NCBI GenBank assembly: GCA_963706575.1
Contig: CAVPNL010000019.1
Location: 1 to 21,594, forward strand
Reading direction: 5' to 3'
Length of the DNA: 21,594 nt
Source: an uncultured delta proteobacterium
GTDB lineage: Bacteria > Desulfobacterota > Desulfobacteria > Desulfobacterales > JAHEIW01
Shown here: piece by piece, positions 1,698 to 13,337 of the stretch
Position numbering within the stretch: position 1 is the stretch's first letter
Layout: each line of letters starts with the position of its first letter
The notes under the pieces: model-generated
Told to the model about the DNA's origin: nothing
Database searches by the model: none
Seen by the model: the letters and a program-made list of their open reading frames with translations, nothing else
Program-made: the position numbers and the translations under genes

Positions 1698-1879
1698 CAG
1701 ACTGTTTCACAATTTAAAAATGGCATAGATAGCTATTTTGTCATTCCGGGCTTGACCCGGAATCCATTGCAGTTGTAGGGTTTTGTGTTTCTGGATGCCG
1801 GATCTGTCATCCCGGACCTGATCCGGGACCGGCATGACAGTCAGGATTCATGCACTTTTTTGCATTATGACACAGTCTG
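1698..1879. mobile_element. 182-bp MITE with 16-bp terminal inverted repeats and 4-bp target duplication
   Basis: CAGACTGTTTCACAAT (1698-1713) vs ATTATGACACAGTCTG (1864-1879): 14/16 inverted match. CTGC is directly repeated at 1694-1697 and 1880-1883. No coding capacity. Confidence 0.85.
1740..1838. repeat. Second REP-like family (GTCATTCCGG..CCGGAATCC) inside the MITE, with a third copy nested in the right unit
   Basis: GTCATTCCGGGCTTGACCCGGAATCCA 1740-1766; inverted unit TGGATGCCGGATCT (1792-1805) ... CCGGCATGAC (1829-1838) whose loop holds GTCATCCCGGACCTGATCCGGGA (1806-1828). Confidence 0.8.
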
Positions 1880-1963
1880 CTGCGCGGGAGTGACAATCAT
1901 TGCAGGGAGGGTGGTAAAATAAAAAAGCATCAATGGGAACGTGGGAAACGATGCGCGATTCAT

Positions 1964-3579: not shown

Positions 3580-3637
3580 ACCACGAAAGCACAGAATTGA
3601 AATCACGACATTAAAAGCAATTTTTCGTGCTTTCGTG
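3580..3637. repeat. Gene-less inverted pair of the CACGAAAGCAC repeat (same family as the GxxExxY flanks)
   Basis: CACGAAAGCAC 3582-3592 and GTGCTTTCGTG 3627-3637 are perfect reverse complements. ACCACGAAAGCAC (3580-3592) equals 8545-8557; TTTTCGTGCTTTCGTG (3622-3637) equals 9025-9040. Confidence 0.8.
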
Positions 3638-3720
3638 ATAATTTTTTTGCGATTTAACGTTCGGCACCCTATGGCTCACAATTTATTTTAAAGCATCGAC
3701 AACCGTGCAAACTCCTTGAT

Positions 3721-5517: not shown

Positions 5518-5554
5518 TTTTGTTCCTACAACAATTTTCGTATGTTCACTTTCA

Positions 5555-5678
5555 ATCGCGGCTGGAAGCCGCTCCCACAGGCCGCTCTCACATCTAATTC
5601 GAATCCATCAATATTAGTGGGAGTGGCCTGCGGCTGTGGGAGTGGCCTGCGGCTGTGGGAGTGGCCTCCGGCCACGAT
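5555..5678. repeat. GTGG-type REP cluster downstream of the RAYT gene
   Basis: ATCGCGGCTGGAAGCCGCTCCCAC 5555-5578 (inverted REP), partial copy 5581-5592, two truncated 19-bp units GTGGGAGTGGCCTGCGGCT (5617-5635, 5636-5654) and full GTGGGAGTGGCCTCCGGCCACGAT (5655-5678). Confidence 0.9.
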
Positions 5679-5693
5679 TCCTATTAATAACCT

Positions 5694-6155
5694 CTAAACA
5701 GACCACCTGCAATACCAATAAGGGTATTCGTGAAAGTCATCAACTAACTTAGCACGTACTGGGTTATTTAGAGTGTAAAGCACTACTTCATTTAGGTCTT
5801 CATCCTTTCGCAATGCGTGATCATGATATTGCGGCTGCCAGAAAACGCCATGCCTTTTTAGCAAAGCATTTATCTTTTTGGCTGTGTAGCTTTTTAAACT
5901 GTGCAATAGCCGATCTAACGAATCCTGCCGCAAGGCAACAACAAAGTGCAAATGGTCAGGCATGATTACGGCGGCATCGAGTGTAATTCTTTTCTGAGAT
6001 TCGAGCCAGTGCAAACTGGATAGAACAATTTGAGCTGCTTCAGGGTGATTCAATACCGGCCTTCTTTTATGTACCGCCGTTGTAATCAGATAAGGCTGAT
6101 TTTGAATGGAAGTGCGGCCTTTGCGCAGTGAGTGAGAGCCCTTTTGGGGTTTCAT
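5694..6155 (-). CDS. rayT: REP-associated tyrosine transposase (RAYT, Y1/HUH family), 153 aa
   Basis: YLITT, IMPDHLH (HUH), SLKSYTA, FWQPQYHDHALR, Y..NNPVRAKLV, YPYW motifs; flanked both sides by REP pairs. Start moved to ATG 6155 because the longer ORF-track N-terminus just translates a REP. Confidence 0.92.
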   Translation of the reverse strand: MKPQKGSHSLRKGRTSIQNQPYLITTAVHKRRPVLNHPEAAQIVLSSLHWLESQKRITLDAAVIMPDHLHFVVALRQDSLDRLLHSLKSYTAKKINALLKRHGVFWQPQYHDHALRKDEDLNEVVLYTLNNPVRAKLVDDFHEYPYWYCRWSV

Positions 6156-6188
6156 TTGTTTTAGGATAATTTGAGGGTTTCTTTTTGA

Positions 6189-6258
6189 ATCGCGGCTGGA
6201 AGCCGCTCCCACTCCATACAAAATGACAATGTTTGTGGGAGCGGCTTCCAGCCGCGAT
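6189..6258. repeat. Inverted REP doublet (REPIN-like) upstream of RAYT
   Basis: ATCGCGGCTGGAAGCCGCTCCCAC 6189-6212 and its exact reverse complement GTGGGAGCGGCTTCCAGCCGCGAT 6235-6258; identical to 5555-5578. Confidence 0.93.
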
Positions 6259-6487: not shown

Positions 6488-6583
6488 AGCATAGCGCATG
6501 GCGCAGAGCGCAAAGAGTTAAAAAAAGAAAAATAGGCAAATAGAAACGCTATGCCGCTTTGTTTCATGCGCTTTGCGCTTTGC
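6488..6583. repeat. Heptamer (CGCAnAG) inverted-array element, copy 1
   Basis: AGCATAG CGCATGG CGCAGAG CGCAAAG (6488-6515) facing inverted units ..CATGCG CTTTGCG CTTTGC (to 6583); 6544-6571 matches 12009-12036 at 27/28. Confidence 0.8.
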
Positions 6584-8044
6584 TACAGGTCGGGTTTTTT
6601 TTTGTGAAAATCCGTGGCCTGTTCGAAATTATAGGCCACTTTAAAAAGCATCTCTTCGTTAAAATGCTTGCCCATTAATTGCAGCCCGATGGGAAGGCCC
6701 TGTTTTGAAAATCCACAGGGGATCGACATACCGGGGATCCCGGCCAGGTTTGCCGAAATGGTGAAAATGTCCGACAGGTACATGGTCAGCGGGTCATCAA
6801 CCTTCTCACCGATTTTAAATGCCGGGGTCGGGGCCACCGGGCATAACAGCACATCGCATTTTTCAAACGCTTTGGCAAAATCCTCCATGATCAAAGTCCG
6901 CACCTGGGAGGCTTTGCCGTAATAAGCATCGTAATAGCCGGCCGAAAGGCAGTAGGTCCCGATAACGATGCGCCGCTGAACTTCGGGACCGAAACCATGA
7001 GAGCGCGTGCTGCGGTACATTTTAATCATGTCGGTTTGATTTTTGTCCCGCATGCCGTATTTAACGCCATCGTAGCGCGCCAGATTTGAGCTTGCCTCTG
7101 AGGGCGCAATCACATAGTAAACGGCCACAGCATATTCGGTATGCGGCAGGGACACCTCCATTTTTTCAGCACCCAGATCCTCGATCACCTTGACAGCGCT
7201 ATCGACTGCCGCCGACACTTCGGAATCGATTCCCTCAGTGGCGTGTGTACTCTCTGGGGATACCCACCCGGACGCCGTTTAATCCCTTTTGTAAAGCAGC
7301 GGTATAATCAGGCACCTCCCGGGAAACGGACGTAGAATCTGCAGGATCATAACCGGCAATTGTCTTGAGCATTATGGCGCAATCCGAGACATTCTTTGCC
7401 AGGGGCCCGATTTGATCCAGAGAGGATGCAAACGCCACCAGTCCGTATCGGGATACCCGTCCGTAGGTCGGCTTCATGCCCACCGTGCTGCAATATGACG
7501 CCGGCTGCCGGATGGACCCGCCCGTATCCGAGCCTAAAGCGCCCAGGCACATATCGGCGGCAACCGCAGCTGCCGAGCCGCCGCTGGATCCGCCCGGCAC
7601 ATAGGCCAGATCCCAGGGGTTGCGGGTAATTTTGTAACCCGAGTTTTCGGTGGACGAGCCCATGGCAAATTCATCCATGTTTGCTTTACCGGCAATTACC
7701 GCCCCCGCTTTGTTGAGTTTGCCGATTACCGTGGCATTATAGGGCGGCACAAAATTTTCAAGAATTTTAGAGCCGCATGTCGTTGGCACGCCCCGGGTGC
7801 AGATGACATCTTTGATGGCAAGCGGAATTCCGGTCAACGACTCACAATGACCGCTGGCAATCTTTTGATCTGCTTCTTTCGCCTGTTCCATTGCAGTTTT
7901 TTCCGAGACCGTAATAAACGCATCAACTTTTCCTTCCACTGTGTCAATGCGATCCAATACCGCGCGGGTTAACTCCACCGAAGATATTTCTTTGGTTTTT
8001 AATAACCGGTGAGCCTTTTCTATTGTTAACTCAAATAATTCCAT
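6583..8044 (-). CDS. gatA: Asp/Glu-tRNA(Asn/Gln) amidotransferase subunit A, one apparent frameshift near 7243-7249
   Basis: Amidase signature [41 protein letters not shown]. ORFs 7235..8044 and 6583..7218 join if one base is removed in minus-strand TACACAC: ...IPREY(T)[13 protein letters not shown]... Confidence 0.95.
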
Positions 8045-8081: not shown

Positions 8082-8228
8082 ATGATGCGTTTGAAAAAGG
8101 TTCAATTTTGTTCAATTTCAAGGAAAGCGAGGATTTTAACCACAGGCATACTTGGTTGTATGTCGAGGATTAAAACCGGAGCTTGACACAGAAATTGGGC
8201 AAAAGGGGGCCTTTTTCAAATGCATCAT
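8082..8228. mobile_element. ~147-bp MITE between gatC and gatA
   Basis: ATGATGCGTTTGAAAAAGG (8082-8100) vs CCTTTTTCAAATGCATCAT (8210-8228): 18/19 inverted match; internal imperfect hairpin TTTTAA..GCATAC / GTATGT..TTAAAA. The outer AT may be a 2-bp duplication or part of the TIR. Confidence 0.82.
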
Positions 8229-8512
8229 CCGACGACCTTGGGAACCACAAAACTACCATCTTCTTTTTCAGGCGCATTTGCCAGTGCCAGCTCACGATCG
8301 ATGTGTTCCTTTTCCTCGTCGTCGCGAAACGCATTGGTCAGAGAGATGGCGTGCGAAGTCGGTTTTATGTCTTTGGTATCGACCTGGTTCAATTTTTCAA
8401 TGTATCCCAGGATTTCGTCAATTTGGCCGGCAAACTTCTCGATGGATTCCTCATCCAAATCCAGGCGTGCGAGGTGGGCAACGTACAGCACTTCTTCTTT
8501 GGTTATTTTCAT
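8225..8512 (-). CDS. gatC: Asp/Glu-tRNA amidotransferase subunit C (95 aa)
   Basis: MKITKEEVLYVAHLARL...ILGYIEKLNQVDT...FRDD...ALANAP...FVVPKVV; directly upstream of gatA. ATG at 8512 preferred over TTG at 8518. Confidence 0.96.
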   Translation of the reverse strand: MKITKEEVLYVAHLARLDLDEESIEKFAGQIDEILGYIEKLNQVDTKDIKPTSHAISLTNAFRDDEEKEHIDRELALANAPEKEDGSFVVPKVVG

Positions 8513-8541
8513 CAGCAATCCCTTAGATGCATTTTAATGCT

Positions 8542-8577
8542 AATACCACGAAAGCACGAAAATTAAAAAACACGAAA
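8542..8577. repeat. 36-bp inverted repeat downstream of the GxxExxY gene (three CACGAAA units)
   Basis: AATACCACGAAAGCACGAAAATTAAAAAACACGAAA; 33/36 identical to the reverse complement of 9010-9045. Confidence 0.9.
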
Positions 8578-8578
8578 A

Positions 8579-9001
8579 TTAATTTACAACACGTTTTATT
8601 TCTAAAGTGGGTTTTGCAAAATTTAACAGTAAACCCACTTCTAAATCGGTAGCCTTAAGATATGATATTAGCTGGGCAAAATGGGCGTCAGTAAGTTCTT
8701 TTACAGCCTTTAGTTCAACAATTATTTTCTTTTCGATGATAAGATCCAACCGGTGAGTTCCGACTTCTTTGCCGTGGTATTCAACTTTGATTTCTTTTTG
8801 AAATTCAAAATTAATATTCGTTTCTGACAATTCTATTTTTAAGGCTTCCTCATAGATAGACTCTAAAAACCCCGGTCCCAATTCTTTATGGACCTTAATT
8901 GCCGCACCAATAATAGCTTCACTTAATTTTTCAAATACGTGTTTTCCCTTGGTTTTTATATTTGGTTTAAAGTCAGGTTCTCCATGATGGATTATTTTCA
9001 T
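8579..9001 (-). CDS. GxxExxY protein (PD-(D/E)XK nuclease superfamily)
   Basis: IIGAAIKVHKELGPGFLESIY (GxxExxY), RLDLIIEKKIIVELKA (D...ExK), QLISYLKAT...GLLLNF; markedly AT-rich. Start uncertain (GTG of VFEKLS is an alternative). Confidence 0.93.
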   Translation of the reverse strand: MKIIHHGEPDFKPNIKTKGKHVFEKLSEAIIGAAIKVHKELGPGFLESIYEEALKIELSETNINFEFQKEIKVEYHGKEVGTHRLDLIIEKKIIVELKAVKELTDAHFAQLISYLKATDLEVGLLLNFAKPTLEIKRVVN

Positions 9002-9009
9002 ATTTAATA

Positions 9010-9096
9010 TTTCGTGCTTTTAGATTTTCGTGCTTTCGTGGTATTCACATCACTGTAATTTCGTGTTTTTAGGTTTTCGTGGTAATTCACATCACT
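9010..9096. repeat. Upstream inverted repeat of the GxxExxY gene plus a shortened tandem duplicate
   Basis: TTTCGTGCTTTTAGATTTTCGTGCTTTCGTGGTATT 9010-9045; second version TTTCGTGTTTTTAGGTTTTCGTGGT 9059-9083; ATTCACATCACT repeated at 9043-9054 and 9085-9096. Confidence 0.88.
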
Positions 9097-9871
9097 TCAT
9101 TACCAGGATGGGTTTCATACCTTCTTTTTTTAATTTATCCATCACGCTCAGCGCCTCAGATTTGCGCTTATACTCTCCGATTCTAACCCGAAACCAGATT
9201 CCTTTTCCGGGTATCTTGCCGATCGCCCGATAGGCCGGATATCCGCTTTTTTTTAATTTCTGGACCAGCCGATCTGCATCTTTTGGATCTTTAACGGAAG
9301 CTGCCTGGATGGTGTATACAGGGCCTGCAGCATTTGTCGGAGTAACGGCAGGAACTTTTCCCTTTTTCTTGGCCGGCTTTTTGATTTGAGAACTTGCTGC
9401 AGGTTCCGGTTTTTGCGTCCCTGCTTTTTGAGAAGCCGATTTTTCAGATGCCGCTTTTGGAACGGTTTCCTTTATGGGCTCCTGGGGACCGGTTTTTTCG
9501 GCCGGTTTTTCGATCTTATCTTTTACAACCTCCGGCTTTTGAAGCGCCGGAACGTCCGGATCTACTTTGTTTTCTTTAAGCGCTTCATAAAACTCGAGCT
9601 TGGTTTTATCCTTTACGGTAACCGGCCTTTTCGGTGCCGGCGCTTTTTTTTGATCGCCGCCGTCACCCTCTTTCGAGGCTTCTAATTTTTTTTCAAGGGC
9701 AGCAATATCAAATTTGACCGGGGCCGTACCTCTGCCGACCAATATCCCCAGTATGAACATCCAGGCACACAGAAAAAAAATTAAAAAAATCCACCCCGCA
9801 ATTTTGCGGCGCGACAGGACAATAAAGGGTTTTTTTAATTCCGGCTCTTTGCGTTTATTCTTTTTTCTCAT
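9092..9871 (-). CDS. SPOR-domain cell division protein (FtsN/DedD-like architecture)
   Basis: Basic N-tail, one TM helix ending GILVGRG, LEFYEAL motif, Lys/Pro/Ala-rich linker, C-terminal SPOR domain (YTIQAASVK...WFRVRIGEY); follows argS, a common arrangement. Confidence 0.9.
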   Translation of the reverse strand: MRKKNKRKEPELKKPFIVLSRRKIAGWIFLIFFLCAWMFILGILVGRGTAPVKFDIAALEKKLEASKEGDGGDQKKAPAPKRPVTVKDKTKLEFYEALKENKVDPDVPALQKPEVVKDKIEKPAEKTGPQEPIKETVPKAASEKSASQKAGTQKPEPAASSQIKKPAKKKGKVPAVTPTNAAGPVYTIQAASVKDPKDADRLVQKLKKSGYPAYRAIGKIPGKGIWFRVRIGEYKRKSEALSVMDKLKKEGMKPILVMK

Positions 9872-11945: not shown

Positions 11946-12048
11946 CGCATAGCGCTAAGCGCAAAGCGCAGAGCGTTAAAAACATGAATTCCCCACTCTT
12001 TTTCATCAAAACGCTTTGCCGCTTTGTTTCATGCGCCATGCGCTATGC
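11946..12048. repeat. Heptamer inverted-array element, copy 2
   Basis: CGCATAG CGCTAAG CGCAAAG CGCAGAG CGTTAAAAA (from 11946) ... AAACGCTTTGCCGCTTTGTTTCATGCGCCATGCGCTATGC (12009-12048). Confidence 0.8.
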
Positions 12049-12136: not shown

Positions 12137-13180
12137 TTGAGCCTTAAGCAAAAACGCGTACTGGTCACAGGCACATGTGGTACGGTGGGCAGGGAATTGA
12201 TTCGTCAACTTCTGGCAAATCAACCGATAGGCGAACTCATCGCGCTTGATCACAATGAAAGTGAGCTTTTTGCTCTTGAACAGCAGTTTGCCGAATACGG
12301 TCATGCTAATTTCTTTTTAGCCGATGTTCGCGATCGGGACAGACTAAATGACAAAATGAAAGGCATCGATTGGGTGTTTCATACAGCGGCGTTTAAACAC
12401 GTTCGCCAGTGTGAACGATCCCCTTTTGAAGCGGTGCAAACCAATATTCTGGGGGTTCAAAACATCATTTACGCTGCCATTGAGAACAATGTTGAGCGGG
12501 TTATCTTTACCAGCTCGGATAAAGCCGTTAATCCGACAAATGTCATGGGAACATCAAAGCTGATGGGCGAACGCTTAATCACCGCCGCCAACAGCAACCT
12601 GCGGGGCGACGGCCCCATCTTTGCCTCCACCCGGTTTGGCAATGTTTTAGGCTCCAGCGGCTCGGTGATTCCCATTTTTCACAACCAGATCCGCAGTGGC
12701 GGACCGGTCACATTGACCGATCCGGAAATGACCCGCTTTATTATGAGCATCGAAGAAGCCGTGCAACTGGTAATCGACTCAGGGCTTCAATGCAAAGGTG
12801 GCGAAGTGTTTGTGACCAAGATGCCGGCGATTCGAATAAAAGATCTGGCTGAGGTCATGATGGAAGAATTGGCAAAGACTTACGGCCACAAGACAGAAGA
12901 TATAGAAATCCAGATTGTCGGCCACCAGCCGGGTGAAAAGTTATACGAAGAGCTGTTAAATATGGAAGAAACCAGACGTTCATGGGAACTGGCACGCTAC
13001 TTCGTGGTTCTTCCGGCCTTTAGAGAGATTTACCGTGATATCGTTTTTGAATACCCGGACATAACATCAAAGGAAGTAACCAGCGCGTATCATTCCGGTA
13101 TGCAAACCCCGCTTACAAAAGCCCAACTGGTTAAGTTTCTAAAGAAAAACAAACTCTTAGAGCCTGGAATGATGGAATGA
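12137..13180 (+). CDS. Nucleotide-sugar 4,6-dehydratase, PseB/FlaA1/CapD-like extended SDR
   Basis: VLVTGTCGTVG, HTAAFKHV, TSSDKAVNPTNVMGTSK, TRFGNVLGSSGSVIP, MTRF, PGEKLYEEL; TTG start after GAGGA. Confidence 0.92.
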   Translation: MSLKQKRVLVTGTCGTVGRELIRQLLANQPIGELIALDHNESELFALEQQFAEYGHANFFLADVRDRDRLNDKMKGIDWVFHTAAFKHVRQCERSPFEAVQTNILGVQNIIYAAIENNVERVIFTSSDKAVNPTNVMGTSKLMGERLITAANSNLRGDGPIFASTRFGNVLGSSGSVIPIFHNQIRSGGPVTLTDPEMTRFIMSIEEAVQLVIDSGLQCKGGEVFVTKMPAIRIKDLAEVMMEELAKTYGHKTEDIEIQIVGHQPGEKLYEELLNMEETRRSWELARYFVVLPAFREIYRDIVFEYPDITSKEVTSAYHSGMQTPLTKAQLVKFLKKNKLLEPGMME

Positions 13181-13280
13181 AGGAATAATGGGATATTGGG
13201 TGGGAAGATAATTTTCAGACTGAACCCCGGAACATTTAAGTTATTCGTTTTTAACCATTATTCCAACATTCCAGTATTCC
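13166..13280. repeat. Octamer inverted-array element overlapping the dehydratase stop codon
   Basis: GGAATGAT GGAATGAA GGAATAAT GGGATATT (13166-13197) facing ATTATTCC AACATTCC AGTATTCC (13257-13280). Confidence 0.8.
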
Positions 13281-13337
13281 AAGATATTAACCTTAACGAG
13301 GATTTTAATTAGAATTAGCGGATACGAGGCAGGGTAA

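Follow-up and report, generated by a model that had tools for sequence, protein, structure and literature searches.

A GxxExxY-family gene enclosed by its own dispersed inverted repeats: a candidate RAYT-like partnership in an uncultured Desulfobacterales bacterium

Results

A nuclease-fold gene between phased arms

The window analysed here, a stretch of 21,594 nucleotides from contig CAVPNL010000019.1 of an uncultured delta proteobacterium of the Desulfobacterales (assembly GCA_963706575.1, here G000), contains a small gene of the GxxExxY family that is enclosed by two inverted arms, and these arms recur throughout the genome, without the gene, as dispersed hairpins. What could tie such a gene to such repeats? 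We consider it evenly balanced whether the two form a partnership like that of the RAYT enzymes with their palindromes, in which a nuclease would bind the phased arms and cut beside them, host repair would complete the insertion, the gene itself would stay in place and, once lost, be regained by recombination, and a separate carrier element would amplify some of the copies.

The gene (140 aa; 8579..9001, minus strand) lies between gatC (8225-8518) and the SPOR gene (9092-9871). It was assigned by TIGR04256 (GxxExxY, E 3.7e-45, 153 bits against a curated cut-off of 35) and PF13366 (PDDEXK_3, E 3.2e-43, 147 bits against 22), together with the fold model and conserved residues described below, and its GC content of 0.333 compares with 0.46 for SPOR, 0.48 for gatC and 0.484 for the genome. 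The upstream arm (9010..9045, minus strand), built from three CACGAAA units at offsets 0, 8 and 24, stands 8 nt before the ATG; the downstream arm (8542..8577, plus strand), an inverted copy of it matching at 33 of 36 positions, lies 1 nt past the stop codon. This pair ranks first among the 235 inverted pairs that the repeat finder returned for the window, and its inverted-repeat score of 57 was reached at none of 600 control open reading frames (ORFs) of the same genome, two of which scored 30 or more. A sequence-only reading of the window had described just such an AT-rich gene, with closely apposed arms of CACGAAA units and no visible target duplication, and it was right on each of these points. 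Absent from it were a partial tandem duplicate of the upstream arm together with the SPOR stop codon (~9054..9095, minus strand), found by repeat search and missing from the G003, G019 and L113 alleles, and a degenerate copy of the CACGAAA arms without a gene, between a porin gene and mutL (3581..3638). Promoter and terminator scans gave chance-level results only.

Arms accompany the family

The layout is not confined to this locus. Among 142 full-length homologues from relatives, the phylum and metagenomes, a set biased by the 80 loci retrieved with the window protein as query, 133 had sufficient flank, and inverted arms were present at 95 of these, compared with 91 of 1058 cross-paired flanks and 1 of 665 shuffles. 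Arm type follows the protein tree, as the sequence-only reading expected: 105 labelled proteins require 15 changes, against at least 59 in 200 shuffles, and the CACGAAA label occurs in 36 of the 37 members of the window's clade, spread over about 13-15 flank neighbourhoods. Searching from the arms instead, in 401 genomes of the order, gave nine distinct gene-sized CACGAAA pairs (354-475 nt); five contain a gene, which in all five is the GxxExxY gene of the window's clade (one frameshifted), and the remaining four are hairpin arrays or nested hairpins. G000 itself has four GxxExxY paralogues, three with three different arms and a fourth that is armless and has lost the active-site residues. Tandem gene-arm-gene arrays also exist.

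The family is very large (7,971 of 8,000 scored candidates match), and its genes were found in none of 50,697 phages, in 7 of 72,556 plasmids and, among viral contigs, as a single weak match; this near-absence from phages and plasmids resembles that reported for RAYTs. A literature search, confined largely to the main texts of non-subscription journals, returned no description of a GxxExxY-arm pairing.

The arms form a genome-wide family of polar hairpins

Counted across G000, half-sites number 46 exact and 10 with one mismatch, the reversed control giving none at up to one mismatch. They form 24 inverted pairs and 12 singles; one pair encloses the GxxExxY gene, and the other 23 are doublets, that is, inverted arm pairs without a gene, of 58-142 nt. 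Across seven genomes of the genus we collected 125 doublets (20 of the listed pairs in G003, 20 regions in G015 and up to 30 loci in each of the others), and since 92 of them pair an A-type with a G-type arm while only 16 are symmetric, the doublet is a polar unit that is copied as a whole. Among the full-length A/G doublets, 73 in number, both outer CACGAAA units are 95-100% conserved, and positions 8, 16-19 and 24 are complementary in just 0-15%. Conserved outer units with non-complementary bases between the units point to CACGAAA as a protein-binding word rather than one side of an RNA helix. Tandem arrays of up to four doublets in a row were seen at L294 and L295 (both in G037), L497 and L498; in G037, with its 232 half-sites, no cognate gene turned up in an assembly that is 83% complete.

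The encoded protein

A structure model of the protein (pLDDT 88.3) has as its top match the Cas4 protein SSO0001 (PDB 4ic1; Foldseek E 6e-4, TM 0.55; VIA Z 8.0, root-mean-square deviation 2.7 over 97 residues). Several restriction-type folds tie with it at this Z, leaving Cas4 a slight lead only, so that the match fixes the fold class, a predicted RecB/Cas4-like PD-(D/E)XK fold, and not the activity. Identity as a Holliday-junction resolvase (Hjc) is not favoured, Hjc structures appearing mid-table (Z 6.3 and 5.3). E47, D86, E96, K98 and Q110-xxx-Y114 are all intact in the window protein, in keeping with RecB motifs I-III and with the QxxxY motif that PMC8610317 names for Cas4/RecB enzymes, and the first four residues are conserved in 138-141 of the 142 genes. 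Q110 is replaced in two neighbouring clades. Where one of the four catalytic residues is changed the arms tend to be missing as well, at 5 of 6 such genes (5 of 38 unarmed against 1 of 95 armed), mostly within one clade. A genus-level clade (L004, L057, L074, L076, L080) has no arms and mostly altered active-site residues, and is possibly a domesticated non-nuclease form.

Compared with three orthologues, synonymous changes in the window gene exceed replacements by 2-2.5 to 1, a sign of purifying selection on the ORF. A 2012 survey (PMC3424549) lists the function of the family as unknown, and a search that included sequence comparison with solved structures found no solved or assayed member.

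An old, patchy resident of the SPOR-gatC junction

G000 holds three versions of this region, on contigs C19 (the window), C6 and C20, which evidently come from co-binned strains. Only C19 has the GxxExxY gene; C6 and C20 have an unrelated hairpin between SPOR and gatC. The gene occupies the same junction in G003, G019, L113 and five metagenome loci (74-78% identity), so that 9 of the 38 clade members (74-100% identity) have it there, and it does so too in G486, a member of another family. It is therefore an old, patchy resident of the junction and not a jumping gene. This argues against the self-jumping element that a candidate mobile system might suggest, and fits the behaviour of RAYTs.

The sequence-only reading proposed to look for an empty junction in relatives, and some relatives do have gene-less remnants there that keep both arms. 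In G004, G008, G012 and G020 the arms enclose the gene's last bases, and in two cases its first bases too, while G034 has an independent deletion remnant between the arms. Four separate losses in the first group were rejected, as two of these genomes share a breakpoint and three form a clade, which makes one event; the gene has thus been lost at the junction by internal deletion at least twice, once within the genus and once in G034. With gene ends still lying between the arms, these remnants show that gene-less doublets are born by internal deletion. Among the contigs of run X2, joints that skip the gene were present, with short sides, and probably come from doublets elsewhere. No target duplication was found at the junction, where relatives are 76-97% identical and short, old duplications could have been lost.

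The gene-bearing allele also bears the trace of an exchange. Between C19 and C6, SPOR differs at 9 positions in its last 120 nt against 14 in the preceding 1380 (post-hoc p ~5e-6), and this cluster at the SPOR 3' end (9092..9195, minus strand), in alleles elsewhere about 99% identical, marks an inferred recombination tract and hence an allele swap, the direction of which the C19/C6 comparison does not fix.

A carrier element

Part of the hairpin family travels with a second, unrelated element. Its 22-nt end, unchanged in many phyla, bounds a minimal unit of 65 nt, and in 48 of 112 loci the element holds phased doublets, which belong to ten types. In several loci (L365:1-1522; L443, L375, L410, L392, L487, L489) this end directly precedes an ORF of about 480 aa that has no Pfam or NCBIfam family, only unnamed atlas neighbours, and that may be a transposase of the unclassified ISNCY kind. 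The ORF is present in 3 of 41 genomes, with a fragment in G019 and none in G003. Carrier ends were detected beside about 31 of the 125 doublets, in opposite orientation in G003 and G019, and beside 3 of the 133 genes. The same 22-nt end also bounds miniature elements of 65-280 nt, which have CTA at either end and house many kinds of hairpin; together these look like an uncatalogued family of insertion sequences and miniature inverted-repeat transposable elements (MITEs).

Neighbouring repeats and side observations

A RAYT gene (5694-6221; NF047646 and Y1_Tnp) lies with GTGGGAG-type palindromes on both sides (window 5545-6258), a palindrome with 17 exact copies in the assembly; it ends 2.3 kb from the GxxExxY locus, close to the roughly 2.4 kb of the sequence-only reading. 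At this RAYT site C6 and C20 have instead a four-helix-bundle gene (TIGR02436) between phased inverted arms of its own, and the gene-less form of these arms is the hairpin at their SPOR-gatC junction.

At least four other hairpin or phased-repeat families occupy gaps of the window (1720-1890, 6489-6583, 8082-8228, 11947-12048, 13165-13281), several of them missing from the C6 and C20 alleles. Further co-binned versions in G000 (C10/C5, C24/C6, C9/C6, C25/C15, C16/C17/C21) are 89-99% identical, and many unrelated hairpin elements set the versions apart in their intergenic gaps. Near window position 7245 an additional base splits gatA, which is intact in the C6 and C20 alleles; a sequencing error in contig C19 is the probable cause. 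In three relatives another GxxExxY paralogue with CACGAAG arms lies directly downstream of gatA (L036, L037, L040; G004, G008, G007), and in G025 (L026) yet another lies between argS and SPOR, so that the operon is a hot spot for such cassettes. At the SPOR-gatC junction of G024 (L021), an ORF start, by its motif seemingly that of a GIY-YIG nuclease gene, stands behind a palindromic repeat and is truncated at gatC.

Discussion

What can be discerned from these observations about the relation between the gene and its arms? In the partnership that we propose, the protein would bind the phased CACGAAA units of its own arms and nick or cut beside them, and host repair would copy the hairpin into new AT-rich gaps between genes. 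The gene would seldom move, staying long at few sites and being lost frequently, a lost gene would likely be regained from the population by homologous recombination, and a separate miniature element, the carrier, likely amplified the youngest copies. PD-(D/E)XK enzymes hydrolyse DNA and, unlike HUH transposases, are not known to rejoin it; imprecise ends and the lack of target duplications are thus to be expected, and this is what is seen. Comparison of filled and empty doublet sites gave neither a target duplication nor a sharp end. That the doublets come and go is plain from 40 sites of G005 and G019, of which 27 could be placed in G000, 21 of these being without a doublet there; three sites could be polarised, as one gain, one loss and one mixed case. 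Whether the nuclease drives this mobility is about an even question.

Across the phylum the repeat goes with the gene: in a set of 250 genomes the most common arm class is abundant in 32 of the 86 that bear a gene against 11 of the 164 others, and by family in 21 of 43 against 3 of 47; the test relates any GxxExxY gene to one arm class. Flank-sharing, and thus apparently young, copies are frequent in two gene-bearing relatives (10 of 20 in G003, 10 of 16 in G019), while other genomes have 2 of 21, 0 of 21, 0 of 16, 0 of 15 and 0 of 14; each gene-bearing genome has one cognate gene. We had considered these young copies as proof of nuclease-driven spread, and rejected this once carrier ends were found in them.

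Several results weigh against the partnership. Among the 24 families with both states, repeat abundance goes up with the gene in 14, down in 9 and is tied in one (p=0.40), so that the dependence of abundance on gene presence implied by the sequence-only reading is seen across the phylum and is not significant within families. In the organism's own family all 25 genomes have the repeat, and the cognate gene was found in 3 of them, a count taken from mostly incomplete assemblies, in 10 of which gatC itself was not found. The young copies are composites with the ends of another element in 9 of 20 and 10 of 16 cases, and as these ends are the flanks that they share, they do not prove action of the nuclease. 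Kin share arm labels, which makes tracking of the tree alone no proof of co-evolution; linkage by itself should produce part of the co-variation between arm and protein, and the labels were assigned after seeing the data. Finally, the same arrangement of a gene between arms occurs in this region with four-helix-bundle genes, which have no known nuclease site, so that the layout is not confined to nucleases. The RAYT-like logic of a gene with its cognate repeat thus survives in its armed homologues, in arms that track the tree and in dispersed, polymorphic doublets, and not in its simple form, given young copies in a carrier and a gene in so few genomes.

Several of these results support the strongest alternative, namely that the hairpins are moved by other enzymes, be it the carrier transposase, RAYTs or host recombination, and that GxxExxY genes, like the four-helix-bundle genes with their shared layout, were captured between arms and inherited along. 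Repeats that persist without the gene, a cross-phylum element that carries ten doublet types and whose end also precedes a transposase-like ORF, and the fragment of this ORF in G019 all speak for such passive cargo. Since the shared flanks of the young copies are carrier ends, the youngest amplification was probably the carrier's work, and the spread of the hairpins is likely due in part to this second element. However, carrier ends adjoin only a minority of the doublets and very few of the genes, a count that would miss decayed ends; CACGAAA arms enclosed no other gene family, and one clade has lost its arms along with its active site. That a single spot of the carrier holds ten arm types implies, moreover, that doublets insert on their own. 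Doublets are also nested within other doublets, and a separate cause is still required for the repeated arrival of many arm types in the carrier, in one another and at sites free of the carrier. We regard passive carriage as unlikely.

Less probable again, and in our view quite improbable, is a homing-like selfish gene whose nuclease would cut gene-less doublets, as cruciforms, or the gene-less allele, with repair from a gene-bearing copy installing the gene; the doublets would then be targets or deletion relics instead of products. The short tract of single-nucleotide differences that separates gene-bearing and gene-less alleles beside the junction, the remnants with the gene's first and last bases between the arms, and the tandem gene-arm-gene arrays would all fit. 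Yet there are tens of doublets for every gene and they remain empty, their spacers genome-wide are unlike gene ends, the C6 and C20 alleles hold an unrelated hairpin and not the cognate target, and the C19/C6 comparison does not tell in which direction the swap went.

An element acting at the RNA level, with arms that pair in the operon transcript and are processed by RNase III or bound by the protein to tune mRNA stability, is the least probable reading: in the predicted transcript the arms do base-pair around a loop that holds the gene (z -6.8), genes of like orientation stand on both sides of 33 of the 42 doublets whose neighbours were called, and the Coxiella 23S rRNA intervening sequence (IVS), in which terminal inverted repeats bearing tandem heptamers enclose a four-helix-bundle ORF, is removed by RNase III according to PMC4990558, but the inter-unit positions are systematically non-complementary, the polar position on the sense strand gives A-C more often than G-U (14 and 8 of 33), Rfam has no match within the window, and the arrival of doublets at new sites would be left unexplained.

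How does the proposed partnership compare with known systems? It is closest to REPIN-RAYT systems, REPtrons and TIRtrons as described in PMC3116915, PMC3733652 and bioRxiv 10.1101/2021.07.10.451892. Both have a gene that is present once, does not jump and stands between copies of its own repeat; inverted doublets without the gene, about 60-100 nt long, outside genes; several paralogues, each paired with a distinct kind of repeat; repeats that decay slowly when the gene is lost; and rarity on plasmids. Two REPtron traits recur here: the cognate repeat that flanks the gene is also scattered through extragenic DNA as inverted doublets, and the gene is single-copy per repeat type, at a fixed site and rare on mobile DNA. 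The enzyme, however, is of the PD-(D/E)XK and not the HUH/Y1 type: in the GxxExxY gene only PF13366 and TIGR04256 match, while Y1_Tnp and NF047646 match the RAYT gene of the window. Its arms are phased heptamers, whereas REPs are self-palindromic and have a GTAG-type foot; here one doublet encloses the gene, which is missing from most genomes that hold the repeat. Lacking an HUH/Y1 enzyme, the system would thus work like REPIN-RAYT without being a member of it.

The likeness to the Coxiella IVS with its S23p gene (PMC4990558) lies in a small ORF in the loop between heptamer-bearing inverted repeats. Unlike this insertion in a 23S rRNA helix, the element here lies between two protein genes, SPOR and gatC, encodes a nuclease fold and has dispersed gene-less copies. 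With Cas4 and RecB the protein shares RecB motifs I-III, QxxxY and the best structural match, but it is only 140 aa long, has no Fe-S cysteines and no cas genes nearby. The doublets resemble MITEs in being short, non-coding, inverted, polymorphic in presence and able to arise by internal deletion, and differ from classical MITEs and insertion sequences in that no target duplications or sharp ends were found and that the parent gene is not a known transposase; the MITE-like layer here is the carrier.

More broadly, and as a tentative proposal that is somewhat more probably wrong than right, the system may represent a new class of prokaryotic mobile DNA, in which a stand-alone PD-(D/E)XK nuclease of 120-140 aa, without strand-transfer chemistry, recognises phased heptamer arms and drives the copying of hairpins through host repair, with a dozen orthogonal enzyme-arm pairs in one genus and hairpins that colonise small mobile elements as carriers. 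The present locus contributes a deletion series, an allele swap and the separation of the carrier's contribution. For GxxExxY, a family of no known function, our characterization provides a concrete candidate substrate in the protein's own arms, with non-cognate controls in the same genome, and suggests where a large part of the intergenic hairpins of sediment bacteria, so far unexplained, is likely to come from. Should the hairpins indeed be moved by the nuclease, a hydrolytic enzyme would take on a role in which only HUH transposases have been known until now, and the numerous enzyme-arm pairs would amount to a natural code of small sequence-specific nucleases.
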